33,994 nucleotides of DNA. Source: a virus. Taxonomy: Duplodnaviria > Heunggongvirae > Uroviricota > Caudoviricetes. Every line of letters starts with the position of its first letter. Positions within the stretch are counted from its first letter, which is position 1. The stretch lies in the IMG/VR virus record IMGVR_UViG_2585427621_000012; one strand, 5' to 3'. The notes under the pieces were generated by a model that saw only the letters and a list, made by a program, of their open reading frames with translations, was not told the DNA's origin and did not search any database. This document shows, one piece after another, positions 1,447-33,519 of the stretch. Made by a program: the position numbers and the translations under genes.

Positions 1447-1533
1447 GCTGAAAAACATAACCCATAAAATGCTAGCTGTACCAGGAACCACCTCCTTAGC
1501 CTGTGTAATCTCCCTTACACGGGCTTATTTTTT
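1447..1533 (+). ncRNA. cyaR: CyaR (RyeE) Hfq-dependent small RNA
   Basis: Matches the remembered CyaR sequence GCTGAAAAACATAACCCATAAAATGCTAGCTGTACCAGGAACCACCTCCTTAGCCTGTGTAATCTCCCTTACACGGGCTTATTTTTT; terminator hairpin CCTGTGTAA/TTACACGGG followed by a U-run. Confidence 0.8.
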
Positions 1534-6460: not shown

Positions 6461-6516
6461 GGTTTTCTCACTTCTGAATCAGGGTTAACCGGTCAGCCTG
6501 GCTGACCGGATGAAAA

Positions 6517-10516: not shown

Positions 10517-11716
10517 TTACTCACCAACAGCCCACCAACTGTAATTCATCGATACCGTGTCGCTGGTTGATGACGTTCTGTAAGCAGAATTAAAGCCGGT
10601 TAACGTTGGGCCTTCTGCAGTCATCACGAACCCTCGCCCAGCGCCTAAAGGCGCACCGCCATCACCAGAATGAGTAAGCATGGCGCAGTCCGCTTTTTTG
10701 GGGAAAGGGATGCTGAATGTAATTCTCATTGTTTGCGTCGATAATGTCGGCGTAACCGCACCACGACCATATTGCAGGATTTTACCGTTGGGTAATTTCA
10801 TCCATCCATCACCACTGGCAAAAGAGGCCATGTCCGGTATCTGATTTTCCCCTGTCCCCACATCCCGTTTTGCCGCTTCTCCCAAACCAAGGTATGCGAG
10901 AAGACCGGCAACATCCTTTCCACTCAAATGAGTCAGCGTCTCATCCAGTGGCTGCTTACCTGACAGCGCATTGTTAATGGTGGTGCTGAATTTCGGGTCA
11001 TTGTTAATGGCCGCGGCAATTTCTTTCAGTGTGTCCAGCGTGTCTGGCGCGCCGTTAATCAGAGCGGTAATAGCGGTCTGAACAAACTCAGTGGTCGCAA
11101 TCCGCGTGGTGTTATTTCCTGCGGCAGGCGTTGGCGCTTTTGGTTCTCCGGTAAATGTCGGATTATGTTTCTGCGCATACTGGGTATGAGGATCCTGTGC
11201 GGCAATGTGGTTTCTCATCTGGTCATCCACATACAGCCTTAATTCCAGGACTTTATCATCCACGTATTTACGGGTCGCCAGTACCACCGACGGGTCGATT
11301 TTCAGCGTGATGGCTTCGGTATTCGTGACAACCAGAATCATGCGGATAGTCTGGGTACGACCGCTGCCTTCCTGTAACTGCGGTTTGTACGTTTCCGGGC
11401 AGTTCGCCACCGCAATGAGTACGCCTTCATCATCATAAAGCCCAATCTCACGGATCCAGAATCCGCCCTCGTTCTCAGGGATGATTTGCTCCGCAATAAT
11501 CTGGCTCTGGTTGTTCGGGTCAACACTCAGAAGATTCAGCGGCGCGATGCGTTTCTGGTTAATAAGTTTTGTCTGTGCCGGGTCAGGTGTCGGCAAGACA
11601 CCATTTGCATCACCAACGGCCATTTGCGTCAGATTCAGCTTACTGCCGAGCATCGTCGCGTTAGCCAGCCGTGCCGCGCCCTGATTAGTCAGAATGGCGT
11701 AGTATTTCACTGTCAT
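10517..11716 (-). CDS. H: Tail fibre protein (gpH-like), active orientation
   Basis: 399-aa ORF; N-terminal about 250 aa resemble P2 gpH (...GGFWIREIGLYDDEGVLIAVAN..., ...NDPKFSTTINNALSGKQP...); C-terminal part differs and begins at the crossover site (..YLGLGEA..). Confidence 0.85.
   Translation of the reverse strand: MTVKYYAILTNQGAARLANATMLGSKLNLTQMAVGDANGVLPTPDPAQTKLINQKRIAPLNLLSVDPNNQSQIIAEQIIPENEGGFWIREIGLYDDEGVLIAVANCPETYKPQLQEGSGRTQTIRMILVVTNTEAITLKIDPSVVLATRKYVDDKVLELRLYVDDQMRNHIAAQDPHTQYAQKHNPTFTGEPKAPTPAAGNNTTRIATTEFVQTAITALINGAPDTLDTLKEIAAAINNDPKFSTTINNALSGKQPLDETLTHLSGKDVAGLLAYLGLGEAAKRDVGTGENQIPDMASFASGDGWMKLPNGKILQYGRGAVTPTLSTQTMRITFSIPFPKKADCAMLTHSGDGGAPLGAGRGFVMTAEGPTLTGFNSAYRTSSTSDTVSMNYSWWAVGE
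10877..10902. repeat. Invertase crossover site, right (26 bp), inside the tail-fibre gene
   Basis: TTCTCCCAAACCAAGGTATGCGAGAA; imperfect internal dyad (TTCTCCCAAACC / GGTATGCGAGAA) around a central AA; encodes YLGLGE at about residue 270 of H. Confidence 0.65.
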
Positions 11717-18489: not shown

Positions 18490-19563
18490 TTACGCTCCCG
18501 GCTCTGCGGTCACTTTAGTCGGTGTGGAGAAGTCACCGACCTTAATTTTTTCCACCAGACAACCGGCGGCGTAGTCTTCCACCACGTAATCAATGTTCAT
18601 TGACTCGTAGTTCTCCACGCGGTCGAGTTTCGGGTTTTCCACAATCACGCGGCGATGGCTGTCATCCATGTAGTAGATGGACAGGTTTTCCAGCTTCGTG
18701 ATGAGCATCGCATCCGCCGGGAAGTACGGGACGCGTACCGCCGGCAGGTTACCGATGCGTTTCTGGCTGATGATGACGTCAGCGGCCAGCATCTCGCTGT
18801 TGTCCTGCTCCCTGTTGACGATGGGAAAATACTTGTCCGCCAGCAGCTGACGCCCCACAATCACCACAAGGTCAGGGTCTTCCTGATACCACGGCTCAAT
18901 CAGGTTGTTGGTCGCATCCATCACCAGTGCATCGAGGCTGGCATAATCACCGCCCTTACCCACGCGGATGACCTCAGAGGTCGTGTGACCTTCCTCGTCA
19001 GTAACCTTGCTCATCACGCGCGCCGGGGCTTCATTGCGGTATTTCTGCAGCCAGCCGACCGCCACATCCTGCAGCATCTGGTTACTGCTGCGGTCAGAGG
19101 TTTCGGCACGCCTCACGCCGTTAAAACCGGCCATGATTAAATCAAGGGACTGGCGTTTGATAATGGCGTTACGGACACGGAGCTGGAAATCCTGATAACG
19201 CGCCCACAGGTCAAGCGTTTTGTAGCGGATATAAAAATCGAAGTTAATCTGGTCGCATTCGTACTTGTTTGACGCCAGCTTCGAGAAGTCCTTCGGCTGA
19301 CGCTCGGTGCCACCGGCGGTGTCTGTGGTGCTGGCGATGGAGCCGGTGACACCAATACCAATTTTTTCCCCTTTCATTTCGCTGACCGGCACAATGTTGA
19401 TGCGGGTCAGAAAGTCAGAGGACTCCTGCATGGTGTTCATCAGGGTCTGGGTGACCGACGGTTCAACGGTGAATTTTTTCGACACATCACCGGCGTCGAT
19501 GCCGTTCAGTTCGGCAACACGGGACAGGTAGGCATTAAATTTAAAGCGGGTTTCCTGGCGCAT
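18490..19563 (-). CDS. N: Major capsid protein gpN
   Basis: 357-aa ORF, P2 N size and position. Confidence 0.9.
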   Translation of the reverse strand: MRQETRFKFNAYLSRVAELNGIDAGDVSKKFTVEPSVTQTLMNTMQESSDFLTRINIVPVSEMKGEKIGIGVTGSIASTTDTAGGTERQPKDFSKLASNKYECDQINFDFYIRYKTLDLWARYQDFQLRVRNAIIKRQSLDLIMAGFNGVRRAETSDRSSNQMLQDVAVGWLQKYRNEAPARVMSKVTDEEGHTTSEVIRVGKGGDYASLDALVMDATNNLIEPWYQEDPDLVVIVGRQLLADKYFPIVNREQDNSEMLAADVIISQKRIGNLPAVRVPYFPADAMLITKLENLSIYYMDDSHRRVIVENPKLDRVENYESMNIDYVVEDYAAGCLVEKIKVGDFSTPTKVTAEPGA

Positions 19564-19621
19564 AGTTTTTCCTGAAATTAAGGGTTAATCGTGAAGGTTT
19601 TCCCGGACTGGCTGACGCCGG

Positions 19622-20476
19622 TCAGCAGTTCGTCATCAGGGCGTCACCGCCACCGCCGGTGGCCTTGCTGCGGCGCTGCTGGGTCAGACTTTCGGTGTGG
19701 TCGAGACTGTTTTTCAGGCGGCTGAATGCCTGGCTGGTTTCATCCGCCCTGTCAGTCACCTCCTGCTTAAGTGCGGAAAAGGCGGTTTCCATCTCAGCGA
19801 GTCGCTGCTCAGTGGCGCTCAGCTTTTCCTGCACATGTTCAGCAACAGCGGTCACCGCTTCATGCACGTCATTCAGACGGGCGTCATCGCTGGCCTGTTT
19901 GCGGCCAAAAATGGATTTCACCTTTTCGGTCAGGGCGGTGAACACGGTTTCAGGCAGGTCTTCAAATTCCAGCTCAACAGGCGTTGCTACTGAAATCAGG
20001 TTTTCAGGGCTTAATTTGAAGCGGTTCAGGGGGTTGTGTTTTGCCGTGCGGCAGAATTCCAGGTATTCCGTGCCGAGGCTTGCCGGGTCATCGGTGACGG
20101 CCAGACCCACCAGATAACATTTGCCGGTGTTGGCAAAGTTCGGCTGAATTTCCATTGAGGTGTAGACCTTCTGCGCGGCCTTGTTCATCGCGATAAGGTC
20201 ATCGGTCGGGGTGATTTTCGCAAACAGCGCCCATTTGCCTTTCAGCGCCGAATCGTCATCAATCTTTTCGGCCTTCAGTTCGGCCACATCGCCATAACGT
20301 TTAAAAATACCGTCAGGCAGGATGCCGCGCAGATGTTCCAGGTTAATGCGGCAACCATAGACACGCGGGTCAAAGGTTTCGGCCATTTCCTGAATATCCT
20401 GCGCACTGATGACACGCCCGTCACAGGTGTCACCCTCAACGCCGATACGAAAGAATTTTGAGACTTTTTTTGCCAT
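19622..20476 (-). CDS. O: Capsid scaffold protein gpO
   Basis: 284-aa product starting MAKKVSKFFRIGVEGDTCDGR...; the track ORF carries a 22-aa upstream extension. Confidence 0.9.
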   Translation of the reverse strand: MAKKVSKFFRIGVEGDTCDGRVISAQDIQEMAETFDPRVYGCRINLEHLRGILPDGIFKRYGDVAELKAEKIDDDSALKGKWALFAKITPTDDLIAMNKAAQKVYTSMEIQPNFANTGKCYLVGLAVTDDPASLGTEYLEFCRTAKHNPLNRFKLSPENLISVATPVELEFEDLPETVFTALTEKVKSIFGRKQASDDARLNDVHEAVTAVAEHVQEKLSATEQRLAEMETAFSALKQEVTDRADETSQAFSRLKNSLDHTESLTQQRRSKATGGGGDALMTNC

Positions 20477-20649
20477 TGTCAGGAGTCCTGAATAGTGATT
20501 AGAAGAGTCACATGTCGGCATCAGTTTCCCGACGATGCGCATCCTCCGCCATCAGTCCCGGATGGCTTATCACTGACACAACAGCACCTTAGCGAATCGC
20601 GGGGCGCGACTCAGTAGCCTTGCCGTGTATTCATCACGGCGAGGTATTC

Positions 20650-22422
20650 ATGACCATCACCACAGACACCACTCTTTTACACGACCCGCGTCGTCAGGCG
20701 GCGCTGCTGTACTGGCAGGGATTTTCCGTGCCGCAGATTGCCGCCATGTTGCAGATGAAACGCCCGACGGTGCAGAGCTGGAAACAGCGCGACGGCTGGG
20801 ACAGCGTTGCCCCCATCAGCCGTGTCGAAATGAGTCTGGAAGCGCGGCTGACCCAGCTCATCATCAAACCGCAGAAAACCGGCGGTGACTTCAAGGAAAT
20901 TGACCTGCTCGGACGCCAGATTGAACGACTGGCACGGGTAAACCGCTACAGCCAGACCGGCAACGAGGCAGACCTTAATCCGAACATCGCTAACCGCAAC
21001 AAAGGCGGGCGGCGCAAACCGAAAAAGAATTTTTTCAGTGACGAGGCTATCGAAAAGCTGGAGCAGATTTTCTTTGAGCAGTCTTTCGAATATCAGTTGC
21101 ACTGGTATCGCGCCGGGCTTGAGCACCGCATCCGCGATATCCTGAAATCCCGCCAGATTGGCGCGACGTTTTATTTTTCCCGCGAGGCGCTGCTGCGCGC
21201 CCTGAAAACCGGTCATAACCAGATTTTTCTGTCGGCCAGTAAAACGCAGGCGTATGTGTTCCGCGAATACATCATCGCCTTTGCCCGGCTGGTTGACGTT
21301 GACCTGACCGGTGACCCGATTGTCCTGGGCAATAACAGCGCAAAACTGATTTTTCTCGGCACCAACTCCAACACCGCGCAGAGCCATAACGGCGACCTGT
21401 ACGTCGACGAGATTTTCTGGATACCGAATTTTCAGGTACTGCGTAAGGTGGCATCAGGTATGGCCTCACAGAGTCACCTGCGCTCGACCTATTTCTCCAC
21501 CCCGTCCACGCTGGCGCACGACGCCTACCCGTTCTGGTCGGGTGAACTGTTCAACCGGGGACGCGCCAGCGCCGCCGAACGCGTGGAAATCGACGTCAGT
21601 CATAACGCTCTTGCCGGTGGGCTTCTCTGTGCGGACGGTCAGTGGCGGCAGATTGTCACCATTGAGGACGCCCTGAAAGGTGGCTGCACGCTGTTCGACA
21701 TTGAGCAGCTTAAACGCGAAAACAGCGCCGACGATTTTAAAAACCTGTTCATGTGTGAATTTGTTGACGACAAGGCGTCGGTGTTCCCGTTCGAGGAGCT
21801 GCAACGCTGCATGGTCGACACGCTGGAAGAATGGGAAGACTATGCGCCGTTTGCCGCGAATCCGTTCGGCTCCCGCCCGGTCTGGATTGGTTACGACCCG
21901 TCACACCGTGGCGACAGTGCCGGATGCGTGGTGCTGGCACCGCCGGTGGTGGCCGGTGGCAAATTCAGAATACTTGAGCGTCACCAGTGGAAAGGCATGG
22001 ACTTTGCCACCCAGGCTGAATCCATCCGCAAACTCACCGAAAAATACAACGTCGAATACATCGGAATTGATGCCACCGGCCTCGGTGTCGGCGTGTTCCT
22101 GCTCGTTCGCTCGTTCTATCCCGCCGCACGCGATATCCGCTACACGCCGGAAATGAAAACCGCAATGGTGCTCAAGGCAAAAGACGTTATTCGCCGTGGC
22201 TGTCTGGAATATGACGTCAGCGCCACCGACATCACCAGCTCGTTTATGGCTATCCGCAAGACCATGACCAGCAGCGGACGCAGCGCCACCTATGAGGCCA
22301 GCCGCAGCGAGGAAGCCAGCCACGCCGACCTCGCCTGGGCGACCATGCACGCCCTGTTAAATGAGCCACTCACCGCCGGTATCAGCACCCCGCTGACATC
22401 CACCATTCTGGAGTTTTACTGA
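20650..22422 (+). CDS. P: Terminase large (ATPase) subunit gpP
   Basis: 590-aa product starting MTITTDTTLLHD...; divergent from O, as in P2. Confidence 0.9.
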   Translation: MTITTDTTLLHDPRRQAALLYWQGFSVPQIAAMLQMKRPTVQSWKQRDGWDSVAPISRVEMSLEARLTQLIIKPQKTGGDFKEIDLLGRQIERLARVNRYSQTGNEADLNPNIANRNKGGRRKPKKNFFSDEAIEKLEQIFFEQSFEYQLHWYRAGLEHRIRDILKSRQIGATFYFSREALLRALKTGHNQIFLSASKTQAYVFREYIIAFARLVDVDLTGDPIVLGNNSAKLIFLGTNSNTAQSHNGDLYVDEIFWIPNFQVLRKVASGMASQSHLRSTYFSTPSTLAHDAYPFWSGELFNRGRASAAERVEIDVSHNALAGGLLCADGQWRQIVTIEDALKGGCTLFDIEQLKRENSADDFKNLFMCEFVDDKASVFPFEELQRCMVDTLEEWEDYAPFAANPFGSRPVWIGYDPSHRGDSAGCVVLAPPVVAGGKFRILERHQWKGMDFATQAESIRKLTEKYNVEYIGIDATGLGVGVFLLVRSFYPAARDIRYTPEMKTAMVLKAKDVIRRGCLEYDVSATDITSSFMAIRKTMTSSGRSATYEASRSEEASHADLAWATMHALLNEPLTAGISTPLTSTILEFY

Positions 22423-23456
22423 TGAGCAAGAAAAAAGGGAAAACACCGCAACCTGCGGCAAAAAAAATGACCGCCAGCGCCCCGAAAATGGAGGCATTCA
22501 CCTTTGGTGAACCGGTGCCGGTACTCGACCGCCGTGACATTCTGGATTACGTCGAGTGCATCAGTAACGGCAGATGGTATGAGCCACCGGTCAGCTTTAC
22601 CGGTCTGGCAAAAAGCCTGCGTGCTGCCGTACATCACAGCTCACCGATTTACGTCAAACGTAATATTCTGGCTTCAACGTTTATTCCGCACCCGTGGCTT
22701 TCCCAGCAGGATTTCAGCCGCTTTGTGCTGGATTTTCTGGTGTTCGGTAATGCGTTTCTGGAAAAGCGTTACAGCACCACCGGTAAGGTCATCAGACTGG
22801 AAACCTCACCGGCAAAATATACCCGCCGTGGCGTGGAGGAGGATGTTTACTGGTGGGTGCCGTCCTTCAACGAGCCGACAGCCTTCGCGCCCGGCTCCGT
22901 GTTTCACCTGCTGGAGCCGGATATTAATCAGGAGCTGTACGGCCTGCCGGAATATCTCAGCGCCCTTAATTCTGCCTGGCTGAATGAGTCGGCCACGCTG
23001 TTCCGCCGCAAGTATTACGAAAACGGCGCTCATGCCGGATATATCATGTACGTCACCGATGCCGTGCAGGATCGCAACGATATCGAAATGCTTCGCGAAA
23101 ACATGGTCAAGTCGAAAGGCCGCAACAACTTTAAAAATCTGTTTCTCTATGCCCCGCAGGGGAAAGCCGACGGCATTAAAATTATCCCGCTCAGTGAAGT
23201 GGCAACGAAGGACGATTTTTTTAATATCAAAAAAGCCAGCGCCGCTGACCTGCTGGACGCGCACCGCATCCCCTTTCAGTTGATGGGCGGCAAGCCGGAG
23301 AACGTCGGGTCGCTGGGTGATATTGAGAAAGTGGCAAAGGTCTTTGTCCGCAATGAGCTTATCCCGCTACAGGACAGGATCCGCGAGATAAACGGCTGGC
23401 TCGGTCAGGAGGTCATCCGCTTTAAAAACTACTCACTGGACACTGACAACGGCTGA
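22422..23456 (+). CDS. Q: Portal protein gpQ
   Basis: 344-aa ORF, P2 Q size; start overlaps the P stop. Confidence 0.9.
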   Translation: MSKKKGKTPQPAAKKMTASAPKMEAFTFGEPVPVLDRRDILDYVECISNGRWYEPPVSFTGLAKSLRAAVHHSSPIYVKRNILASTFIPHPWLSQQDFSRFVLDFLVFGNAFLEKRYSTTGKVIRLETSPAKYTRRGVEEDVYWWVPSFNEPTAFAPGSVFHLLEPDINQELYGLPEYLSALNSAWLNESATLFRRKYYENGAHAGYIMYVTDAVQDRNDIEMLRENMVKSKGRNNFKNLFLYAPQGKADGIKIIPLSEVATKDDFFNIKKASAADLLDAHRIPFQLMGGKPENVGSLGDIEKVAKVFVRNELIPLQDRIREINGWLGQEVIRFKNYSLDTDNG

Positions 23457-23461
23457 ACATC

Positions 23462-23483
23462 GCCGCCTGCGGGCGGCTTTTTT
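23462..23483 (+). terminator. Rho-independent terminator after Q
   Basis: GCCGCC-tgcg-GGCGGC hairpin followed by TTTTTT. Confidence 0.6.
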
Positions 23484-23625
23484 ACACCCCGTCATCACGC
23501 CCTCACACGCTCACCACCGCACAAAACACCCCGCAGACACACCAACGCCTCAACGGGCAGACTAAGCGCCATCACGACGCGCTCAGACGCTGAAAAAATA
23601 AAATCAGCACCACCGCCAGCGCGCA

Positions 23626-23644
23626 GTGCTTTCCCCGCCTCGCC
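23626..23644. other. cos site (19-nt cohesive end, GGCGAGGCGGGGAAAGCAC on the minus strand)
   Basis: Reverse complement of 23626-23644 equals the remembered P2 cohesive-end sequence; flanking sequence toward Q matches the remembered P2 left end. Confidence 0.75.
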
Positions 23645-23773
23645 CGCCCGCTTCATGTGGCGATTTTAATGCGGTTGCATTTTTATCGAAAGTCTCGTCT
23701 CACAAATCCCTCCCTTCACTAAATAGACTCATTATCCACATGCAATCTAATTCAAAAAAATGCATGTATAGTA

Positions 23774-25744
23774 TTAAAGGTCATCAATTAAACCTAAAGG
23801 CAAACCGTCCTCACCAACCGAGCTATAATGAGCGATAATATTCGAAAGTTCACCAGTAGAAAACGAATTAGGCAAATCATTATCAACTAATATAATCTGG
23901 CACGGAACATTTTTTCTTTCTGCTTTTTGAACTGTATTCAATAGTTGTTCATAAATATTTTGATACTTCATCGGATCTGACATTCCCTCAAGGTCATCCT
24001 CGAATGCAAGAGTTTCTTTTGAATATTTTTCCTTGGTCTGTTTCCCTAAATATTTGCCAACCGTATCAAATATCAAAAGTAAAGGATGGTTAACATTATG
24101 ATCTATTGCATAATCAAGAATAGACAAAAGATACCCAATAGAAGAAATAGTTCTCAAACCTCCGGATGTTATTTTAAAATATTCTTTTTCTCTTATAACA
24201 GGAATGTAATAGCTTTCAGAGATTTTTATCCCCGTTCTGTTTTTGATATTAATACCCTTCAAATACTGACTAAATCTATCACCCAAACCTTGTAAAATGC
24301 CCTCCATGCTAGGTGCGTTTTTCTTTAACGCCTCCAAGCGTTCAGTTAATGCTTCAATATCTTTTCTCAGTACCTGATACTTTTCAAGCAGTTCCTCTTG
24401 CTGGTTTCTAACCTTCAAATCTTTTACTAACTGCTCCCTAACCTTCTCATTTTTTGAGATCTCTTTAATATAAAAATCTCTCTGAGTCAAGAATGGTGTA
24501 ATCATTGACTGGCTTTCTTCGTCAATCAATTCTCTCAACTCGTCAAGTCGTTCATCTAATTCCTTTTTATAACCTGATTCTTTTTTTAATTTAAATGACA
24601 TTTCTGAGATCATGTCATTAATATTTCGTCTACGTCGACTAAGTGAATTCAACTCTTCATTAAGATCTTTTTCTGATGAAATTTCAAATGGAAAATCAGA
24701 ATCATCTATTTTAATGTGGCTATCACAGACTGGACAGGAAAATACTTCCTTATCCAATACACCAATGCGAGAATTTGCTGTTTTAATCGCTTTGAGTTTT
24801 TCAATATCATTATCATAGTCATTTTTTAACCGCGAATATTTATCAATCTTATCCTCAAGCGCAGTAATATTTAATATGCACTCTTTGTATTTAAGCGAAA
24901 TAAAATTGTGAGCATCTTTCAATTCTGTATACTGTATGGAATCCGCTTTCATATTTTTATCGAGAGCAGACAAACCTGCAACAAGTTCTTCTAAAACAAG
25001 ATCTATCCTATTAATCTCATCATCAATTGATTCAATCGTTTCATAGTCTGTATCGCGAAGAAATTCAGATATTATCTGATACTTCCTATTTAATTCCGTT
25101 ACTAAACTACTTTTTGCAGATATTTCACCTTGGAGTCTGGCGATGCTTTCATCCAACACATTGAACATGTATTTAAAAACTTCTTTCGTAAATGCGTAGC
25201 GGGACCAATCACCCAATCGCAAGAAAGATTTACTACCAATATCATCCTGACTTACATAAACAAATTTATATATATTTCTAAAACTTAACCTGCGCATCTG
25301 TGAATGAGCTTTAGAAGGAGACACCTTAATTTCAATCTTTGGAAAATTAAGACTATCAAGTAAAAACTCCGAAAAAACACCATCAACATTTGATAATGGG
25401 CTATAATTAGGAGCGTATTTTTTCGGAAAATGTTTATGTAAATCATCAAACTTACAACGATAAACTTCTATTGCTTTTTTATGATCATAGATATCTCTTA
25501 CGATTGTGAATACAGTATCATTGATCACTACTTCAAGAGCAGCATAGTTTACTGATGTTTTTATTTCATCTGCTAAATCTATAGAGCTAGCACCTAAAAG
25601 ATAATTAATAAACTCCAGAATGCTTGACTTACCTGTGTCAGAGTCTCCGTAGATAACATTGAGACCTTTATAAAAAGTAGTGACGTAGTTTTTACGAACG
25701 CCAACAAGAATCAAACTATTGATATTGAGATATGATTTCATCAT
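23774..25744 (-). CDS. Rad50/SbcC/SMC-like ABC ATPase with coiled coil and CxxC zinc hook (candidate defence ATPase, LmuB-like)
   Basis: 656 aa; Walker A GDSDTGKSS near the N-terminus; long low-complexity charged, helical middle with CPVCD at about residue 336; C-terminal signature-like TSGG, Walker B LLLIFD, and ILVDND; AT-rich codon usage. Confidence 0.7.
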   Translation of the reverse strand: MMKSYLNINSLILVGVRKNYVTTFYKGLNVIYGDSDTGKSSILEFINYLLGASSIDLADEIKTSVNYAALEVVINDTVFTIVRDIYDHKKAIEVYRCKFDDLHKHFPKKYAPNYSPLSNVDGVFSEFLLDSLNFPKIEIKVSPSKAHSQMRRLSFRNIYKFVYVSQDDIGSKSFLRLGDWSRYAFTKEVFKYMFNVLDESIARLQGEISAKSSLVTELNRKYQIISEFLRDTDYETIESIDDEINRIDLVLEELVAGLSALDKNMKADSIQYTELKDAHNFISLKYKECILNITALEDKIDKYSRLKNDYDNDIEKLKAIKTANSRIGVLDKEVFSCPVCDSHIKIDDSDFPFEISSEKDLNEELNSLSRRRRNINDMISEMSFKLKKESGYKKELDERLDELRELIDEESQSMITPFLTQRDFYIKEISKNEKVREQLVKDLKVRNQQEELLEKYQVLRKDIEALTERLEALKKNAPSMEGILQGLGDRFSQYLKGINIKNRTGIKISESYYIPVIREKEYFKITSGGLRTISSIGYLLSILDYAIDHNVNHPLLLIFDTVGKYLGKQTKEKYSKETLAFEDDLEGMSDPMKYQNIYEQLLNTVQKAERKNVPCQIILVDNDLPNSFSTGELSNIIAHYSSVGEDGLPLGLIDDL

Positions 25745-25853
25745 TTCTCCTTGAAGACTTGATTTATAACAGAGTTTAACTTAGAGGTAGGCAATGCTTG
25801 TAGCGGTAACAATGCTTCGGATAGTCGTTTTATTTCTTTAAAATATCCATCAG

Positions 25854-26252
25854 TCAATGAGCTAGCAAATTCCTTACCTTTTTCAGATAAAAATAATTTA
25901 ACACTCTCATTATTTTTTTCTCAGCTGAGAGCAATCCCCGCAATGACATAATTTTTATAAGATATTTCACTTTGGAATTGTCGAATAAGATATCTACATT
26001 TGTTGAAAAACTCTTTATTGTATAAGTTAACTGGGACTCGACACAAGCAGGCTTTTTCCCCGAAACTGTAAGAGCATAATCAATTTTTGATGGGTTTTTT
26101 ATCAGATACATAAAAATTTGTATTTTATTAATATCTAATGATAACACTCCTTTTTTGCTATGAGATAATATAGATATAGCAATGGCAAGCATAGCAAAAT
26201 TCAAGCTATACTCTTCATCAAGAGGAATATACGGCAAGTTATTTTTCTTCAT
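25854..26252 (-). CDS. Small middle-component protein of the three-gene module; as sequenced 132 aa, possibly about 170 aa if a frameshift at an A7 run is resolved
   Basis: ORF between the hydrolase and ATPase genes; a second open frame (25741-25912, ...SVKLFLSEKGKEFASSLTDGYFKEIKRLSEALLPLQ...) continues to a TGA overlapping the ATPase ATG. Confidence 0.55.
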   Translation of the reverse strand: MKKNNLPYIPLDEEYSLNFAMLAIAISILSHSKKGVLSLDINKIQIFMYLIKNPSKIDYALTVSGKKPACVESQLTYTIKSFSTNVDILFDNSKVKYLIKIMSLRGLLSAEKKIMRVLNYFYLKKVRNLLAH

Positions 26253-27462
26253 GATTACCTCGCCGTAATTGCTCCAAAGTTTCTACGCTGGTTTCAGATG
26301 ACCAGACAATATCCCTGTCATTTTTGTTAGCCAGTTGATGCAACATTCCTTTCTTATGTATCGTTTCTAAACTTTTTATAAGAGAATCTAACGACGACTT
26401 ATCCTCTTGGGCTATTCGTCTATGAACAGCAGCAATAAATTTATCTGGGGAAATTGAATTCGCGATATATTGCTCATACTCTTCCTGGTAAATCTCCCTT
26501 ATTTTAGAATACAAATGACCAAGTAGTTTCCTATCGTAATCACTCGTAAAAATATTTCTCGCAAGCTCAGCATTATAATAATATTCCTTTGCATGCATAG
26601 CGATATCCTGATGTATATCTGCGACAATCATTTTTAAGACGAAATACTCATTATCATATTGTTTCTCATCAGAAAAACGCTCAACACATATCTTCTTGGG
26701 TGCTTCTAAATTTATCTGCTGAATAAATTGCTTTACCGCAACAAACACTGTAGACGAGCTGTTTTCGGGCTTGCAAATTGAGCTATGCCCTTCATTAACT
26801 GCAATTGAGTTATTTCGTTCACTATCCATCGGTAATGCGCTTTTTTTATCAACTATAGTGTCATGAGAACCATAAACATATCTAGTGATAGGAAGTTTTT
26901 TGCTACAATTTATCCAGCGCCTATTCAACGTATCGGTCGCTTCACTTAACAATCCAAGATCTACTAACTGAGCATTTGAAGATACCATTGAAGTTATATT
27001 CGCCAATTTAGCACCAAAGTGAGGGACTGCTAACGAAATGAATCCAATTATATTAGATTGTTCCTCATGCTCAACTTTTTTTAGAATTAGATTTTTTGAT
27101 ATTACCCCCCCCATACTATGGGCGATTATTATAATTCGAGAGTAATCACTTAGCGTTACCCTAATCTCAGTATACAATAACTCAGCTATTTCATCAGTTG
27201 GTAAATTTCTCTCTAACTTATTTTTCTTAGAGAAAATACGAGCCCATAATCCTGACGTTTTAGCATACGTTTGTGTAAATTTGGTGAAATAATTGAAACA
27301 TGCAATATCAAATACATTGCCAATGTCTTCATCTTCTGCTAATAGTTTTGGAAATGAAGTTTCTTTATTAAAGTTCCATGTTTCCAAACCACCATTTAAT
27401 CCATGTACAAATAGTATCAGGCTATCTTTTTTCTCGTGGCTTATCCATTCAACCATGCTCAT
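26239..27462 (-). CDS. Lipase-like alpha/beta-hydrolase (serine hydrolase) with C-terminal helical domain (candidate effector, LmuA-like)
   Basis: 407 aa; oxyanion-hole motif LILFVHGLNG, nucleophile elbow AHSMGG (AxSxG), downstream GSHDT (Asp) and NEGHSS (His) consistent with a Ser-Asp-His triad; about 170-aa helical C-terminus; AT-rich. Confidence 0.7.
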   Translation of the reverse strand: MSMVEWISHEKKDSLILFVHGLNGGLETWNFNKETSFPKLLAEDEDIGNVFDIACFNYFTKFTQTYAKTSGLWARIFSKKNKLERNLPTDEIAELLYTEIRVTLSDYSRIIIIAHSMGGVISKNLILKKVEHEEQSNIIGFISLAVPHFGAKLANITSMVSSNAQLVDLGLLSEATDTLNRRWINCSKKLPITRYVYGSHDTIVDKKSALPMDSERNNSIAVNEGHSSICKPENSSSTVFVAVKQFIQQINLEAPKKICVERFSDEKQYDNEYFVLKMIVADIHQDIAMHAKEYYYNAELARNIFTSDYDRKLLGHLYSKIREIYQEEYEQYIANSISPDKFIAAVHRRIAQEDKSSLDSLIKSLETIHKKGMLHQLANKNDRDIVWSSETSVETLEQLRRGNHEEK

Positions 27463-27551
27463 ATGCTTTTCTGCCGTGTATAAAAATTAAACTATAACAA
27501 ACAATTCCTCAACAATAACATATTGTTACCCCGTTTGACCGTTTTTTTCAA

Positions 27552-29834
27552 CTACCACTCACGCTGTCTGTCAAAAAAGTCGATATCGTTATCAAATTTA
27601 AAACGCTTATGCCCAAAATCCAAAACAGCTCCGCGAGCGAGAGCTTCAAGCTCCCAATAACTAGCCTGAATGTCACTTTGTGCAAGAAGAACCTTAATTT
27701 TCGGGATAGTCTTTCTCTCCTGCCTTGTCAACCGGGCGGATGGGGCAGGAAAGTAGCTTCGACCATTGAAAGGGGTAAAGCTCTGCTGTGAACGATTACT
27801 GCATTTCAGTTCATTACTCAATAAGTCTCTAAGTACCTTCATAATGCCTGGCTCGGTCCAACTTAGAATCCCTTCATCTATTAAATTTAACACCGCTGCA
27901 GCATGCTCAGTCGGTGTGGGAGCCGGTAACGAAGTATCACCACCGGTGAGTTTTCCACAGTTATTGACAGGACTCCGAGGCGCGGCGATGCCGCTTTTTA
28001 AAGTCAAAGGCTCAACGACCGGAACTTTCGGCACAATGCGCCAGTCCGTCGTTCTGGTGATATGAATATGACGCGCGCCGAGATGCGGCGCGTAAATGCC
28101 GACCACTCTCTCGACTTCTTCCTCGTACTCGTTAACGTCATCCGACGGGCTACGGGCGACCCTGACAGTCTGACAATCGCGCGGGACATTTGCCCCACCC
28201 TGCGCGCTGATATACAACGCAAAATCACCACTGTCTGCGGCAGCGCGAGCAGCCTCGACGCGTTCGTCAAACTCATCAGCAATACTGACGCCGCGAGGCA
28301 ATTTGCGTAGTTCACGGTAAGCCCCCATTGTCGGCAGTCCAACCGTTTTAAATTGCGGAATGCGCCACGTTGACGCCCATGCGGTAACAGCCGCGGCAGT
28401 ATCTTTAAGCGGCTTACCGGTATCGTTATCGAGCTGACCATCCAGTGCATAGCCGTCGATGTTTTTTGAAATGTATTTCGCGATATATCCCGCAGCACCG
28501 CCCCGGTTAAGGTGTTTTGCCTGAAAACGGTTTCGCGCAGCTCCTCTTTCGTCTCCATCCTCTTTGAGCGCGTAGCGACGCATGATTTCGATAATCTGGT
28601 TACGCTGGCGTGGATTACAAAAAAGCATCATATGCCAGTGCGGCGTTCCGTCGTGGTGTGGCTCGACGACACGCAAACCGTAGACCTGTAAATCATTATC
28701 CTTGAATGCCGTGCGCATCAGGCTCCAGATGCGGCAGAGATAACGCTGCGCATCCTTTGGATTAAATGCCTCATCGTTCCAGCCGTGATTAAGCTGAACG
28801 GTTTTACTTTCGCCTTTTCTGACCTGACGTGTCGGGTGATACTTTGACGGCGCGGTCAGCGTGATAAACATCCCCACATCACCCTCTGCGGCGGCGTAAC
28901 GCTCAATACCGGCAATGGTGTTCATCAGCTCCATCCGGCGAATTTCAGGATTAGAAATACTGCCCATCACCTTACTGATAAGGTCGATGCGCTCGCCGGT
29001 TTCCCTGTTTTCAAGGTCACACGATTTAAGAAATTCCAGATTTGCCTGGCGGCGCGCACGCACATCACGAATGGCGTGTTTACTGGCATAAGGAGAACGG
29101 TCTTTATTGACCTCCCCGACAGCTATCAGTAACGCTTCATGCCAGCGCATACGCTGGCCTTTAAGCTGATGAGTCCACCACTCATCGTTAAACAGACGGG
29201 CAATGGCAGAATATGCCTGCCTCGTGGTCATCTGCCCTTTACGGTATATTTTCCAGTAGAGAGGGGAAATATTGAAAGCACGTGCAGCGCCAGCAACATG
29301 ACCATAGAGGTGAGCCTGCGCCTCATCCGTAAACAGCGATTCTTTTTCGCCATGCGCATCCACCCAGGCATCACTGAGTTCCCCATACATCATGAAAAGC
29401 TGCGATGAGATACGGGCAGCAAACTTTTTCAGCTCCTTGTCATTCATTCCCGGCAGGCGCGCATAGTGGTCACGCTCTGCCAGAAACAGTAACGACGCGT
29501 CGGTGTTCATTTCATGGCGCTGATTCACACGCTCAATGCGCGGCCATAAACGACGCTGAAAAGTGGATGTGAGGAAATAAAACCCGTGCACCGGGCTTTT
29601 ATTGCGCCGGATGTGGTCATAGCGTGAAGTAAACAGCGAGCGCAAAAAGTAAGGCAGGCGGTTAATCGTGGATAAAACACCTTGCACCTGACGCATCTCG
29701 TCACGTGTAAGGGGTCTTTCGCGCCCGACGGCCTCGCGTGGCGCGTTCCATGCATAAGCACCGGTAAACGCCTTACCGGTGCCTGCAGCAAATGCTGACG
29801 GAGGGACAAAACGCCCGGAGGCTTTAACGGCCAT
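27552..29834 (-). CDS. A: Replication initiation protein gpA (rolling-circle nickase)
   Basis: About 760 aa, recognised as P2 gpA (...GFYFLTSTFQRRLWPRIERVN...HDGTPHWHMMLF...); start chosen at MAVKASG (ATG 29834) for the smaller overlap with the upstream ORF; the track start at 29876 is an alternative. Confidence 0.8.
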   Translation of the reverse strand: MAVKASGRFVPPSAFAAGTGKAFTGAYAWNAPREAVGRERPLTRDEMRQVQGVLSTINRLPYFLRSLFTSRYDHIRRNKSPVHGFYFLTSTFQRRLWPRIERVNQRHEMNTDASLLFLAERDHYARLPGMNDKELKKFAARISSQLFMMYGELSDAWVDAHGEKESLFTDEAQAHLYGHVAGAARAFNISPLYWKIYRKGQMTTRQAYSAIARLFNDEWWTHQLKGQRMRWHEALLIAVGEVNKDRSPYASKHAIRDVRARRQANLEFLKSCDLENRETGERIDLISKVMGSISNPEIRRMELMNTIAGIERYAAAEGDVGMFITLTAPSKYHPTRQVRKGESKTVQLNHGWNDEAFNPKDAQRYLCRIWSLMRTAFKDNDLQVYGLRVVEPHHDGTPHWHMMLFCNPRQRNQIIEIMRRYALKEDGDERGAARNRFQAKHLNRGGAAGYIAKYISKNIDGYALDGQLDNDTGKPLKDTAAAVTAWASTWRIPQFKTVGLPTMGAYRELRKLPRGVSIADEFDERVEAARAAADSGDFALYISAQGGANVPRDCQTVRVARSPSDDVNEYEEEVERVVGIYAPHLGARHIHITRTTDWRIVPKVPVVEPLTLKSGIAAPRSPVNNCGKLTGGDTSLPAPTPTEHAAAVLNLIDEGILSWTEPGIMKVLRDLLSNELKCSNRSQQSFTPFNGRSYFPAPSARLTRQERKTIPKIKVLLAQSDIQASYWELEALARGAVLDFGHKRFKFDNDIDFFDRQREW

Positions 29835-30099
29835 ATGAGCCAAAAGCCTCTGAGCAACGCTTGCTGAGTTGCTCAACCTGCGCGTTTAAATCAGCAAAAG
29901 ACTTTGCGCTTCCGGTCAGAATATCGTGATGCATCAGGCCGGAAACGAGCTGGCTTAATTTCGGGTAATAACCAACCACCGCCAGCCATTCCTGACCGGC
30001 GTTTTTACCGCTTTCCGCTCTCTTTTTCTCGTGGAGAATAAACTGAAAGCTGTCACTGGTAACGACATAACGTTCGCCAATTTCAATACGAATACTCAT
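29824..30099 (-). CDS. Hypothetical early-operon protein (P2 orf83-like position)
   Basis: 91-aa ORF tightly packed between a zinc-finger ORF and A; function unknown. Confidence 0.55.
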   Translation of the reverse strand: MSIRIEIGERYVVTSDSFQFILHEKKRAESGKNAGQEWLAVVGYYPKLSQLVSGLMHHDILTGSAKSFADLNAQVEQLSKRCSEAFGSYGR

Positions 30100-30320
30100 G
30101 CCGTTCTCCGGTAACGTTTGTTTTTTGCTTCAAAGACTGACTGACAGGAAACACAACGCGTGGCTGACGGGTAAGCCGCACGACGGGCAGCAGGTATTGG
30201 CGCGTCACACTCTTCGCAAACCAGCGCAGAAGCACCGCAATGTTTTACCCTTGCCGCGTTAATCTGGCGCTCCAGTAATTCAGCCTGTTGTTCCTGAATA
30301 AAATCTACGTTGTCCGGCAT
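30096..30320 (-). CDS. TraR/DksA-family C4 zinc-finger protein
   Basis: 74 aa with a CxxC-N17-CxxC arrangement (CEECDAPIPAARRAAYPSATRCVSC) typical of the DksA/TraR zinc finger. Confidence 0.6.
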   Translation of the reverse strand: MPDNVDFIQEQQAELLERQINAARVKHCGASALVCEECDAPIPAARRAAYPSATRCVSCQSVFEAKNKRYRRTA

Positions 30321-30322
30321 TA

Positions 30323-30625
30323 TCAGCTCCTTTTATCGTTAAGTTTCCTGGATACATCAGCGCAATAACTGGCAAGTTCTGTCGTTAATTTTGTCAGTTC
30401 ATCCACTGAGGAAATTTGCTTGTGGAATACAGCGCGTTTAACAAGTAAATTGACCACATCAGACAGGAGGTTTAATTCATTCTGATAAATCGCGATAACA
30501 GATTCAGTTATGTCGCGTTTTTCTTTATCAAGGCAAAGTTGAATAAGAGACAAATCGCCATTTTTCATAACGGCGATTTTTAAGGCGTTATTCAGTAATA
30601 CAACTGAATGAGAACAGGACATCAA
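30323..30625 (-). CDS. Hypothetical early-operon protein
   Basis: 100-aa ORF in operon context between B and A. Confidence 0.5.
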
Positions 30626-30846
30626 AGCACCTCCCCGCGAGACAATCCGATATTGTGAAATTTTTCCGACTCCTGACTGAGCAGCTCGACTATCTCCACG
30701 CGGGATAACTCCGCCTTTGTGATATGGCGAATCATGGCGTCAAGATGAGAAGAAAAGCGTGTCGCTGCGTCGGCCTGTGCTTCGGCTCTGGCCTGTTGCA
30801 GCAGTAATGCGTATTTACCGCACTTGTTTTCAGAAACTGTATGCAT
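30622..30846 (-). CDS. Hypothetical early-operon protein
   Basis: 74-aa ORF overlapping the next gene by 4 nt. Confidence 0.5.
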
Positions 30847-30909
30847 GACTTTCTCCAGGCAAAAAGAAGCCCCGCACGATTAAGTGCGTTAAAAACTCTG
30901 GTTAATTAT

Positions 30910-31410
30910 TTAATGCAGATATTGCTCTGGTTTTACCGACGTCAGAATTGTCGGTGCATACTCAAACAGGCTGAATAATTCACGTAATGCACGGAATAAA
31001 GCATCACGCCAGTAACATGATTCTTCATTAATTCGCCAGTATGGCTGGTTGAATTCTTTTTCAGTCAATCCGGCATGCATAAATAAAGTACGACGCTGAC
31101 TGACTGTTAAAAAACTAATATATGCATACTCACTTGCGCCAACCTGACGGCGTTTTGAGAATGCCCCACGCAATTCATCAATTGCACAAACCAGCCGTTC
31201 ACGTTCGACGTCGTTCATTTCTTCAAAACGCATCGTTGCGTGACGCTGTTTTAACTGCGCATGGAAGCAAACCGTTAGCCGTTCGCGTTCCATCATCTGA
31301 TTATAATAATCACATGTATCCTGCCAGCGAGGGACGGCAAGATGCTTGCCAATTATCCGGCGCATAGCTGCTGGCTGTTTTTCAACGAGATTGAGCGTCA
31401 TCACTGTCAT
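30910..31410 (-). CDS. B: Replication protein gpB (helicase-loader-like)
   Basis: 166-aa ORF, P2 gpB size and position. Confidence 0.8.
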   Translation of the reverse strand: MTVMTLNLVEKQPAAMRRIIGKHLAVPRWQDTCDYYNQMMERERLTVCFHAQLKQRHATMRFEEMNDVERERLVCAIDELRGAFSKRRQVGASEYAYISFLTVSQRRTLFMHAGLTEKEFNQPYWRINEESCYWRDALFRALRELFSLFEYAPTILTSVKPEQYLH

Positions 31411-31577
31411 TTCCAGACCCTCCGGCTTTTCAGAAAGGTCAGAGCCTTTTTTAACGGACTCTGTTTTTTGGTGCGGATAATGATTCCCTTACGCCCCTTA
31501 CCGTGGGTGATGGTGAAGTCAATCGCCCTGGGGCTTTCGTTACGCAATAACTGAGCAATACAACGAGGCTCATTCAT
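31407..31577 (-). CDS. Small early protein (P2 orf78-like)
   Basis: 56-aa product from the internal Met (MNEPRCIAQLL...); the track ORF would overlap cox. Confidence 0.45.
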   Translation of the reverse strand: MNEPRCIAQLLRNESPRAIDFTITHGKGRKGIIIRTKKQSPLKKALTFLKSRRVWK

Positions 31578-31587
31578 ACGGTTCTCC

Positions 31588-31863
31588 TTAACGTGGTTCA
31601 CCGAGACCTAACCACATCAACCAGCCGTCACGAATCTCTTTAGGACGGCTTTCATAAGCCAGTTTTAGTCCGTTATTCCATGCCGGAAGGTATACCCAAT
31701 ATTCACCAGCACGCCCCGATACTGACTGAGGGTCAGTAATCTCAATAACTGGTAATTTCCCTTTCTCAATCATGCCCCTTACAGCTCTTGGAGTTTTACC
31801 AATGAGTTTTGCAAACTCCTGATAAGGCACGGCATCAGTCACGCTTACAAGCTGTCTATTCAT
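31588..31863 (-). CDS. cox: Cox (excisionase and repressor of the Pc promoter)
   Basis: 91-aa ORF, first gene of the early operon, divergent from C; P2 Cox size. Confidence 0.8.
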   Translation of the reverse strand: MNRQLVSVTDAVPYQEFAKLIGKTPRAVRGMIEKGKLPVIEITDPQSVSGRAGEYWVYLPAWNNGLKLAYESRPKEIRDGWLMWLGLGEPR

Positions 31864-31984
31864 CTGCTACGATTCTCCCTTAGTGCTTCTAATGGCTCCT
31901 AATGGCTAATTATTGCCTAAAAGGATAACTCCAGAAGCACAACATTTCACACTATCAGCAAGAAATTACGCAATCGGAGTAATT
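31864..31984. promoter_or_regulatory. Immunity switch region (Pe/Pc promoters and repressor operator), with tandem CTAATGGCT repeats at 31889-31897 and 31899-31907
   Basis: 121-bp gap between divergent cox and C; two 9-bp direct repeats spaced 10 bp apart, resembling the direct-repeat operators of P2-type C repressors. Confidence 0.45.
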
Positions 31985-32284
31985 ATGTCAATAGACGTTT
32001 CGGAGAAGTTGAAGCTAATCCGTGAATCTGAAAGGTTAAACCGTAAAGAATTCAGTGAATTAACTGGTGTAGCCTACAGCTCACTTTCGAGCTATGAGAG
32101 CCGGTCAAAAAACGCTGGAGTTGAAGCCATAATGAAGGTCTTACAACATCCTAGATTTACTAAATATACTTTGTGGTTCATGACTGATCAGGTAGCTCCA
32201 GAAGCCGGGCAAATTGCGCCCGCTCTCGCACACTTTGGGCAAAACGAAACAACGTCGCCCCACTCCGGTCAAAAGACTGGTTAA
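31985..32284 (+). CDS. C: Immunity repressor C
   Basis: 99-aa product from ATG 31985 (MSIDVSEKLKLIRESERL...); C-terminus ...FTKYTLWFMTDQVAPEAGQIAPALAHFGQNETTSPHSGQKTG is P2 C-like; track ORF is 5'-extended. Confidence 0.8.
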   Translation: MSIDVSEKLKLIRESERLNRKEFSELTGVAYSSLSSYESRSKNAGVEAIMKVLQHPRFTKYTLWFMTDQVAPEAGQIAPALAHFGQNETTSPHSGQKTG

Positions 32285-32398
32285 CAATTTATCGTGAATA
32301 TATTCATCACAAGTGCCTACTATTGGTGGCTAAATTTCAGCCACACGAAAAAAGCGATTAGTAGTAGCAAAAAAAAGTACCACTCGGAGGGTTTTCTG

Positions 32399-33412
32399 AT
32401 GGCAATCAAAAAACTCGATGATGGTCGATATGAAGTGGACATCCGCCCTACTGGACGTAACGGAAAACGCATCCGTAGGAAGTTTGATAAGAAAAGCGAA
32501 GCTGTCGCTTTCGAAAAATACACGTTGTACAACCACCACAATAAAGAATGGCTATCAAAACCAACAGACAAACGACGTCTGTCGGAACTGACACAGATCT
32601 GGTGGGATTTAAAGGGTAAACACGAAGAGCATGGGAAATCTAATCTTGGAAAAATTGAAATCTTCACAAAAATAACGAATGACCCATGCGCATTTCAAAT
32701 CACGAAATCCCTTATCAGCCAGTACTGCGCCACCCGAAGAAGTCAGGGTATTAAACCTTCGAGTATCAATCGTGATTTAACATGTATTAGCGGCATGTTT
32801 ACAGCCCTGATTGAAGCGGAGTTATTCTTTGGTGAGCATCCTATCAGAGGGACAAAGAGGCTTAAGGAGGAAAAACCAGAAACAGGCTATCTCACACAGG
32901 AAGAAATAGCCTTACTGCTTGCAGCACTTGACGGCGACAATAAAAAGATTGCGATTCTTTGCCTAAGTACAGGAGCACGTTGGGGAGAAGCAGCTCGTTT
33001 GAAAGCAGAAAATATCATCCATAACCGCGTCACGTTTGTTAAAACGAAAACAAACAAACCACGCACCGTCCCGATCTCAGAGGCTGTTGCCAAAATGATC
33101 GCGGATAACAAACGAGGTTTTTTATTCCCTGATGCTGATTACCCTCGCTTCAGACGAACAATGAAAGCAATAAAACCGGATTTGCCAATGGGGCAAGCCA
33201 CACATGCACTAAGGCACAGCTTTGCCACTCATTTCATGATTAATGGAGGAAGTATTATCACGCTACAACGGATACTAGGTCACACGCGGATTGAGCAAAC
33301 TATGGTTTACGCTCATTTTGCGCCAGAGTACCTTCAGGACGCCATTTCTCTTAATCCGCTAAGAGGTGGTACTGAGGCCGAGAGTGTCCACACAGTGTCC
33401 ACAGTAGAGTAA
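32399..33412 (+). CDS. int: Integrase (tyrosine recombinase)
   Basis: 337-aa product from MAIKKLDDGRYEVDIRP...; catalytic-region motifs (...HALRHSFATHF..., ...LGHTRIEQTMVYAHF...); next to the right att copy. Confidence 0.9.
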   Translation: MAIKKLDDGRYEVDIRPTGRNGKRIRRKFDKKSEAVAFEKYTLYNHHNKEWLSKPTDKRRLSELTQIWWDLKGKHEEHGKSNLGKIEIFTKITNDPCAFQITKSLISQYCATRRSQGIKPSSINRDLTCISGMFTALIEAELFFGEHPIRGTKRLKEEKPETGYLTQEEIALLLAALDGDNKKIAILCLSTGARWGEAARLKAENIIHNRVTFVKTKTNKPRTVPISEAVAKMIADNKRGFLFPDADYPRFRRTMKAIKPDLPMGQATHALRHSFATHFMINGGSIITLQRILGHTRIEQTMVYAHFAPEYLQDAISLNPLRGGTEAESVHTVSTVE

Positions 33413-33491
33413 CGTTTAAGGGCTTTCAGTGGTAATTTATGCCGCTCAAACCCGCATTGTACCGTTGAAAGCCCCTACTGGTGACACCCTA

Positions 33492-33519
33492 AATCTCCCT
33501 TACACGGGCTTATTTTTTA
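33492..33519. repeat. att core, right copy
   Basis: Identical to 1507-1534; lies 80 bp downstream of int. Confidence 0.8.

Follow-up and report, generated by a model that had tools for sequence, protein, structure and literature searches.

What does a block of three adenine- and thymine-rich (AT-rich) genes do in an otherwise balanced P2-like prophage, and does its base composition tell when it arrived there? The question is raised by the virus record IMGVR_UViG_2585427621_000012, a DNA stretch of 33,994 nucleotides (nt) which we call the window and which holds a P2-like prophage of Escherichia coli. A sequence-only reading had singled out positions 23645-27551, next to the cohesive-end site cos and the replication gene A, as a cargo block whose composition would fit a recent acquisition by horizontal transfer into a hotspot. 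We consider, with a probability of roughly 0.88, that this cargo is a short, zinc-hook Lamassu (ABC-three component, ABC-3C) anti-phage system with a lipase or α/β-hydrolase effector, carried as an AT-rich hotspot cassette of a P2-like prophage.

The compositional contrast of the block with its surroundings is large. Its guanine plus cytosine (GC) content is 0.333 and that of the remaining window 0.535; in 445 windows of the same length placed elsewhere, the mean was 0.543 (standard deviation 0.035, minimum 0.445), such that the block lies about 6 standard deviations below the mean. When GC was followed in sliding windows of 500 nt, it went from 0.53-0.60 at 19000-23750, where the P2 morphogenesis genes are, to 0.31-0.35 at 23751-27500, and climbed back to 0.52-0.55 by 27751-28500. 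In a two-change-point likelihood fit, which gained 223 in log-likelihood, the GC edges fell at 23662 and 27625. The block thus stands out from the flanks as the sequence-only reading had predicted, and it shows the strong deviation in composition by which genomic islands are recognised. Between cos and gene A, the three cargo genes expected from that reading are indeed present, the middle one being frameshifted in the window. They are co-directional, fill the block on the minus strand in the order lmuA-lmuC-lmuB, and are flanked by the phage backbone as follows.

22422..23456, plus strand: gene Q, portal protein, the left backbone flank (Pfam Phage_portal; RefSeq portal annotation)
23626..23644, minus strand: the P2 cos cohesive end of 19 nt, found as the reverse complement of GGCGAGGCGGGGAAAGCAC, with an exact match here and in five related loci
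23774..25744, minus strand: lmuB, SMC/Rad50-like ABC ATPase of 656 amino acids (aa) (PADLOC LmuB PDLC03862, E=1.5e-235)
25854..26252, minus strand: lmuC, ABC-3C middle component MC4, frameshifted (Pfam MC4 1.9e-16; PADLOC LmuC 4.9e-34)
26239..27462, minus strand: lmuA, effector of 407 aa (PADLOC LmuA 3.5e-108; Pfam CTD8 1.7e-35, DUF676 4e-9, PGAP1 3.6e-7)
27552..29834, minus strand: gene A, replication endonuclease, the right backbone flank (Pfam Phage_GPA 8.2e-122; coordinates from the RefSeq annotation of E. coli O157:H7 TW14359)

The same contrast is seen in the codons, for which we computed GC at third codon positions (GC3), the fraction of rare codons and a leave-one-out codon adaptation index (CAI) with the backbone genes as reference. 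GC3 was 0.28 (0.275) in lmuB, 0.30 in lmuC and 0.30 in lmuA, against 0.71 in the terminase gene P of the left flank, 0.65 in Q and 0.54 in the bulk of A; overall GC of lmuB was 0.326. Rare codons made up 6.6-10.8% of the lmu genes and 1-4% of the backbone genes, and the CAI was 0.42-0.48 and 0.59-0.80, respectively. Lys, Asn, Ile, Tyr and Phe accounted for 31-40% of the residues in the lmu proteins and 21-28% in the backbone proteins, in agreement with the bias toward A/T-rich codons and toward Lys, Asn, Ile and Tyr that had been noted by eye. The shift is greatest at synonymous sites, and GC at the first and second codon positions (GC1 and GC2) is lower too in the cargo.

The assignment of the cargo to the Lamassu family is carried by the architecture of its proteins. 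LmuB is an SMC/Rad50-like protein with the Walker A motif GDSDTGKS (K39), a single CxxC zinc hook (C337, C340) and the Walker B motif LLIFDT (556-561); it matches the Pfam families SMC_N and AAA_23 weakly, and its RefSeq entry, WP_001325828.1, reads 'AAA family ATPase/SMC family protein'. LmuA combines a hydrolase domain, matched by DUF676, PGAP1 and Abhydrolase_1 over residues 10-208, with the ABC-3C C-terminal domain (CTD) CTD8 over residues 265-389. Its catalytic triad consists of S116 (in AHSMG), D201 and H226, and H115-S116-M-G-G, D201 and H226 are invariant in 50 homologues of 39-94% identity. In the AlphaFold2 model of LmuA, the hydrolase domain is confident and has the α/β hydrolase fold, and the best Foldseek matches of the model in the Protein Data Bank (PDB) are esterases, thioesterases and monoacylglycerol lipases. 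The genes are tightly packed: lmuA and lmuC overlap by 14 nt, and the overlap of lmuC with lmuB is ATGA in the intact allele. RefSeq labels the cargo genes as 'ABC-three component system' proteins. Hence an SMC/Rad50-like LmuB, an effector with a CTD as LmuA, an adjacent middle component and conserved catalytic residues are all present, as in Lamassu and ABC-3C systems; of the components only lmuC is not intact.

Among the known systems, the closest to the cargo is the short Lamassu with zinc hook and lipase effector (clade H in PMC12663957; Lamassu-Lipase/Hydrolase in DefenseFinder), a subtype with no solved structure. Both are three-gene operons found in an E. coli host; both have a LmuB with Walker A, the short-type Walker B (hhhhD[T]) and a single CxxC hook, and a DUF676/PGAP1-like α/β hydrolase with a Ser-Asp-His triad. 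The copy in the window differs from that subtype in its frameshifted and truncated lmuC. The E. coli 'Lamassu Ec-Lipase' protects against λvir, and the Walker A lysine of LmuB and the histidine of the lipase are required (PMC12663957). With the DdmABC/Cap4-type Lamassu of Vibrio cholerae and Salmonella, solved as LmuA1B2C1 complexes, the cargo shares the same subunit logic and presumably the same mechanism of sequestration, release and oligomerisation. However, those systems carry a Cap4 nuclease with CTD7 and MC3, whereas here a hydrolase, CTD8, MC4 and a zinc-hook LmuB are found, and the sequence similarity between them is below phmmer detection. Hydrolase-effector operons have been assigned to the Lamassu family, and members are present in the prophage hotspots of Rousset et al. 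(Millman et al.).

The lmuC gene of the window is broken. Its ORF encodes 132 aa, of which 113 are native residues and 19 are out of frame, whereas the intact gene encodes 170 aa (171 codons with the stop) and its TGA overlaps the ATG of lmuB. Of the 133 positions of the MC4 profile, the window ORF covers 1-84 and the intact allele 1-132. The lesion is located in a short tract.

25913..25919, minus strand: homopolymer at the frameshift, A7 on the coding strand versus A8 in the intact allele (comparison with TW14359)

This single base is the sole difference between the window and TW14359 across 20400-30700. Allele counts were obtained with a 251-nt query across the homopolymer: an exact A7 match was found in 1 of 60 listed genomes (there are 95 carriers), and in at least 58 of the 60 listed the tract is one base longer. 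Truncated LmuC of 132 aa occurs on 48 contigs, against at least 1000 contigs with intact LmuC; the 48 come from several sources and include complete genomes such as that of E. coli OkiPb01683, whose prophage has a different backbone. The A7 form of lmuC is therefore either a minority allele that recurs or an error that recurs at this homopolymer. According to the structural literature, LmuC belongs to the core of the complex and contacts the CTD of LmuA, the hook-proximal coiled coil and DNA; in the Lamassu-family systems tested, deletion of lmuC abolishes defence (Millman et al.). With lmuC truncated, loss of function is thus likely here, and the system encoded in the window is probably non-functional, as judged from its sequence.

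A second, independent lesion is present in E. coli B. In REL606 (NC_012967, locus 5952-6466), a 2-bp (CA) insertion, at a site corresponding to about position 26102 of the window, splits lmuC into ORFs of 50 and 121 aa. It was from REL606 that Rousset et al. cloned the system 'Hydrolase + SMC' (pFR106), the 50-aa LmuC fragment being protein 2 in their table (PMC9122126).

For the mechanism, we extrapolate from the Cap4-type Lamassu complexes whose structures are solved and from the lipase-type system of E. coli that has been tested; how LmuA is sequestered and released has been described (PMC12663957; bioRxiv 10.1101/2025.03.14.643221). In an intact copy, a folded LmuB dimer and LmuC would grip one LmuA through its CTD, such that the effector is kept monomeric and inactive. 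LmuB and LmuC would sense an invading phage by its DNA ends or replication intermediates, ATP turnover would free LmuA, and the freed LmuA would oligomerise through CTD8, switching on the Ser116-Asp201-His226 hydrolase. The active hydrolase would then kill or arrest the cell by abortive infection, probably attacking ester or lipid substrates, the substrate being putative. The domain architecture, the intact ATPase motifs, the zinc hook, the conserved Ser-Asp-His triad and the operon structure were computed directly.

Several points weigh against the assignment of the cargo as a lipase-type Lamassu defence system. The CTD8 part of the AlphaFold2 model is of low confidence; the structural matches of LmuA are generic α/β hydrolases with TM scores of 0.45-0.63; and a phmmer search of LmuA, LmuB and LmuC against PDB sequences gave no match. 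Because the CTD8 model is poor and no solved structure is detectable by sequence, the transfer of the mechanism from Cap4-type systems is inferred by analogy. The mutants of Ec-Lipase are K42 and H215, whereas the corresponding residues here are K39 and H226, such that Ec-Lipase may be a different homologue. The promoter of the cassette is likewise only a candidate: a weak promoter-like match (TTGAAA-18-AACAAT) lies at 27551-27522, ahead of lmuA, but promoter-like sites in 23400-28000 are not enriched (13, against 16.8 expected from shuffles). The only direct test of the cassette, with pFR106, left it among the systems not validated as defence (PMC9122126); the broken lmuC of REL606 may explain this negative result. 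Finally, the A7/A8 difference lies in a homopolymer, a classic site of error. That it arose in sequencing or assembly, the system of the source strain being intact, is possible, although we find it doubtful: the window otherwise matches TW14359 over 10.3 kilobases (kb) and nearly all listed carriers have the longer tract, but the same truncated protein is encoded on the 48 contigs described above, in complete genomes and beside the other backbone of OkiPb01683. As for the function, a module of lysogenic conversion or virulence, such as a secreted or injected lipase, rather than immunity, would be in line with the esterase/lipase-like nature of LmuA and with the cdtABC toxin genes that occupy the same slot in phage KC618326. 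We find this hardly tenable, since the combination of a CTD8-bearing LmuA, an SMC-like ATPase and MC4 in one operon is the defining architecture of Lamassu and ABC-3C systems, and the lipase-type Lamassu of E. coli protects against λvir in a manner that needs the catalytic His and the LmuB ATPase (PMC12663957).

The slot in which the Lamassu cassette lies has the order Q, cos, cargo, A, that is, between A and Q and next to cos, as in the gpA-gpQ locus known as a defence hotspot (Rousset et al. 2022, PMC9122126; NAR 2026, PMC13586616). The cassette and the hotspot are already known and catalogued: Table S5 of PMC9122126 lists the cassette as 'DUF676/PGAP1 + hypothetical + hypothetical', with the same LmuA accession, WP_000063136. 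In a survey of 5426 complete E. coli genomes, the flanks were present in 2152 and the cassette in 95, which include O157:H7, E. coli B, E. coli C and other lineages; among O157:H7 genomes the cassette is nearly identical. Six other types of cargo were found in the slot: cdtABC (phage KC618326), paraMORC3 with Dcm, Fic/VbhT, two unknown sets, and orf91-tin-old of P2 itself, so unrelated gene sets occupy one slot of otherwise collinear phages. The P2 tin/old region has the same position between A and cos/Q and a similar AT-richness (tin 0.33, old 0.35), and both it and the cargo of the window would be expected to act from the lysogen. They differ in that the cargo here is a Lamassu system, with cassette-linked divergence that reaches 319 nt into A.

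An exchange between prophages can be seen in E. coli OkiPb01683 (NZ_AP042515). Its prophage differs from the window by 2-5% in P, Q, the spacer between Q and cos and the early genes, but by only 3 positions across 23567-29964, a 6.3-kb block which comprises cos, the cargo and all of A and which also carries the A7 allele of lmuC. A recent recombinational transfer between P2-like prophages can be read directly from this alignment. Its left junction is at most 60 nt from cos, in agreement with the suggestion of Rousset et al. that cos ends promote cassette exchange (PMC9122126). On our reading, cassettes are exchanged by recombination, one junction falling at or beside cos and its counterpart within gene A or past it. 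The exchange of cassettes across P2-like prophages, which had been put forward as a check of the hotspot idea, is borne out by these comparisons.

The inference from AT-richness to a recent acquisition fared differently. All the cargoes examined in the slot are AT-rich against a backbone GC of about 0.55, as listed here (the values for tin and old were computed from NC_001895).

cdtABC: GC 0.41
MORC/Dcm: GC 0.37
Fic/VbhT: GC 0.36
unknown sets: GC 0.39-0.42
P2 tin: GC 0.33
P2 old: GC 0.35
Lamassu: GC 0.33

Diverged copies of the Lamassu cassette are equally AT-rich. A P2-like prophage of Scandinavium hiltneri carries it in the same slot with 86-87% protein identity and a GC of 0.32-0.38, its backbone proteins being 78-82% identical, and relatives in Pseudomonas entomophila (49-53% identity) have a GC of 0.38-0.44 in flanks of 0.64-0.71. 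Between E. coli B and O157, the cassette is 97.3% identical and the backbone 97.2-97.9%. LmuA relatives form a graded series, from Citrobacter (92%), Salmonella (83%), Pantoea (78%), Buttiauxella (73%) and Rouxiella (72%) to Serratia (63%) and Yersinia (62%), followed by Pseudomonas, Shewanella and Aeromonas at about 50%; this taxonomic spread rests mostly on the protein search with LmuA, as the scan of genome contigs with LmuB gave only 3 loci. Such a gradation within Enterobacterales speaks against a new import from a phylum of low GC. The deviation of the block does not mark a short residence, given low-GC copies diverged by 13-14% and about 50% and the co-divergence of cassette and backbone in E. 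coli B. Since all slot cargoes examined and the diverged relatives are AT-rich, low GC is a property that this mobile gene pool maintains, a lasting mark of cargo passed around among P2-like phages and other mobile elements rather than of a new arrival. It may plausibly be kept up by a mutational bias of mobile DNA or by H-NS-type silencing of genes that are costly.

Two other explanations of the low GC must be weighed against this one. A block taken recently from a low-GC donor, without time yet for amelioration, would account for the very large drop of GC3 (0.28-0.30 against 0.54-0.71) and its sharp edges, for the near-identity of the cassette among O157:H7 genomes, and for the recent movement of the block between diverged P2 backbones seen in OkiPb01683. 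We nevertheless regard it as unlikely: the Scandinavium copy is just as low in GC although its proteins have diverged, from O157 to E. coli B cassette and backbone have diverged to the same extent, every other slot cargo examined is AT-rich, P2 tin and old included, and the Pseudomonas relatives lie 25-30 GC points under their own flanks. In addition, the identity of LmuA relatives declines step by step through Enterobacterales, and the matches listed include no close relative from a low-GC phylum. That the composition of the proteins themselves imposes the low GC, through a coiled coil and helical domains rich in Lys, Asn and Ile, is in turn very unlikely. The excess of Lys, Asn, Ile, Tyr and Phe (0.31-0.40 against 0.21-0.28) and the lower GC1 and GC2 are as this explanation expects; however, GC falls most at synonymous third positions, the two non-coding stretches (23681-23773, 27463-27551) are as AT-rich as the genes, and the unrelated proteins of the slot (cdt, Fic, MORC, Old, Tin) are encoded by AT-rich DNA too. 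A standing signature of circulating cargo thus remains the reading that we prefer.

As to the edges of the Lamassu cassette, the sequence-only reading had placed the transitions at cos and at the stop of A. The first holds, cos being at the left edge, but the right edge lies some 319 nt inside A. The features at the two borders are the following.

23681..23773, minus strand: AT-rich non-coding stretch, the first cassette-specific DNA past cos (from the loss of homology; the GC change point is at 23662)
27463..27551, minus strand: AT-rich intergenic region of 89 nt between the lmuA start and the A stop, the presumed and inferred site of the cassette promoter
27552..27870, minus strand: A tail, the last ~106 codons of A, a diverged allele (GC 0.445 against 0.532 in the rest of A)
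27964..27983, minus strand: P2 origin of replication (ori), nick-site motif GCGCCTCGGAGTCCTGTCAA within gene A (from the rep_origin of NC_001895), with the nick at 27976

On the left, blastn homology to other P2-like phages, those carrying cdt and paraMORC3, ends at 23679/23680, 35-36 nt beyond cos. On the right, it restarts at 27871, 319 nt inside A, whose stop is at 27552. The unit that differs from other P2-like phages, as delimited by sequence homology, is accordingly 23681-27870, with the A tail included. Terminator-like sites were searched for within 23681..23773 and none was found; in 23400-28000 there were 6, against 2.3 in shuffles, and they are located in the backbone and not at the cassette ends. 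A 53-aa ORF on the minus strand (23495-23656) spans cos and appears as 'hypothetical protein' in several P2-like phage records (e.g., two at 7096-7257); being GC-rich and overlapping the packaging site, it is probably not a real gene.

The tail of the A protein shares only 33-43% identity with its counterparts in other E. coli P2-like phages, whereas the first 654 residues of A are 97-98% identical. It is, however, 65% identical to the tail of the Lamassu-carrying phage of Scandinavium. It was found in 95 of the 5426 E. coli genomes, and the cassette count is also 95, the two sets being compared by count only. The diverged A tail travels with the cassette. Each cargo comes with its own C-terminal tail of the A protein, and the Lamassu-linked one has been kept with the cassette across genera. 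The ori nick at 27976 is about 100 nt upstream of the point of divergence in A (27871). Among seven P2-like phages, pairwise identity was 0.95-1.0 up to the nick, fell to ~0.8-0.9 from 35-75 nt beyond it and decayed further toward the stop. As the fall past the nick is seen in all seven, the variable region effectively begins just 3' of ori, and the Lamassu-linked tail is its extreme. The nick was also tried as a constant right-hand junction of exchange and was rejected, the near-identical block of OkiPb01683 running through all of A to about 29965.

These observations led us to a more speculative proposal, to which we attach only a small probability, namely, that the exchangeable module would be bounded not by genes but by the terminase cut (cos, 23626-23644) and the nick of the A protein (ori, 27976). 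Break-induced recombination at ori and cos could then drive the swapping of cassettes. The A tail and the cargo to which it is linked might also have adapted to each other, so that, for instance, the resident phage could replicate without triggering a Lamassu that senses replication. As a lesser variant of the proposal on breaks at ori and cos, the A8 tract of lmuC could be a slippage switch for a costly abortive-infection system, a suggestion prompted by the two independent frameshifts of lmuC (A7 in the window, +CA in E. coli B).

The prophage is integrated at cyaR, between yegQ and yegR, in a chromosome of the E. coli O157:H7 type. Within the window it is bordered by a U32 peptidase gene (yegQ-like) with CyaR at one end and by yegR at the other, and the window is identical to E. 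coli O157:H7 TW14359 across 20400-30700 (10.3 kb) save for the one base in lmuC.

1445-1530, plus strand: CyaR (RyeE) small RNA gene at the prophage end, flanked by the yegQ-like peptidase gene and ogr (Rfam, 100.7 bits)

We take the 3' end of cyaR to be an attachment site of the P2 family, and the position of CyaR at the prophage end is consistent with that. CyaR was the sole match of the Rfam scan, with none inside the cargo region, and a tRNA gene was looked for and is not present. Two other parts of the prophage also depart from the backbone in composition. The immunity and integration end, 30000-33500 (DUF5405, B, cox, C, int), has a GC of 0.42-0.48, below that of the backbone, and int a GC3 of 0.43 and a backbone-referenced CAI of 0.50; it forms a second, milder compositional module. 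At 8917-10052 (plus strand) and 10517-11716 (minus strand), a local GC dip to 0.44 accompanies a tail-collar ORF and a tail-fibre-assembly ORF, on the strand opposite to that of the tail-fibre gene H; this may represent a tail-fibre segment that is alternative or inverted, or what is left of one.

The present analysis mainly confirms that P2-like prophages bear AT-rich, swappable defence cargo beside cos, in this case a catalogued Lamassu variant. What it adds to the known picture is small: a cassette-linked A tail just past ori, and independent frameshifts of lmuC. The hotspot papers bound the cargo by genes, from gpA to gpQ (PMC9122126, PMC13586616), and analyses bounded in this way miss the last ~100 codons of a replication gene which move with the cargo. 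As lmuC frameshifts occur in widely used strains, the E. coli B lineage (of which REL606 was examined) and some O157:H7 among them, broken copies can be mistaken for inactive systems. Composition is no clock: a low GC does not show that the cargo of a phage hotspot was acquired recently.

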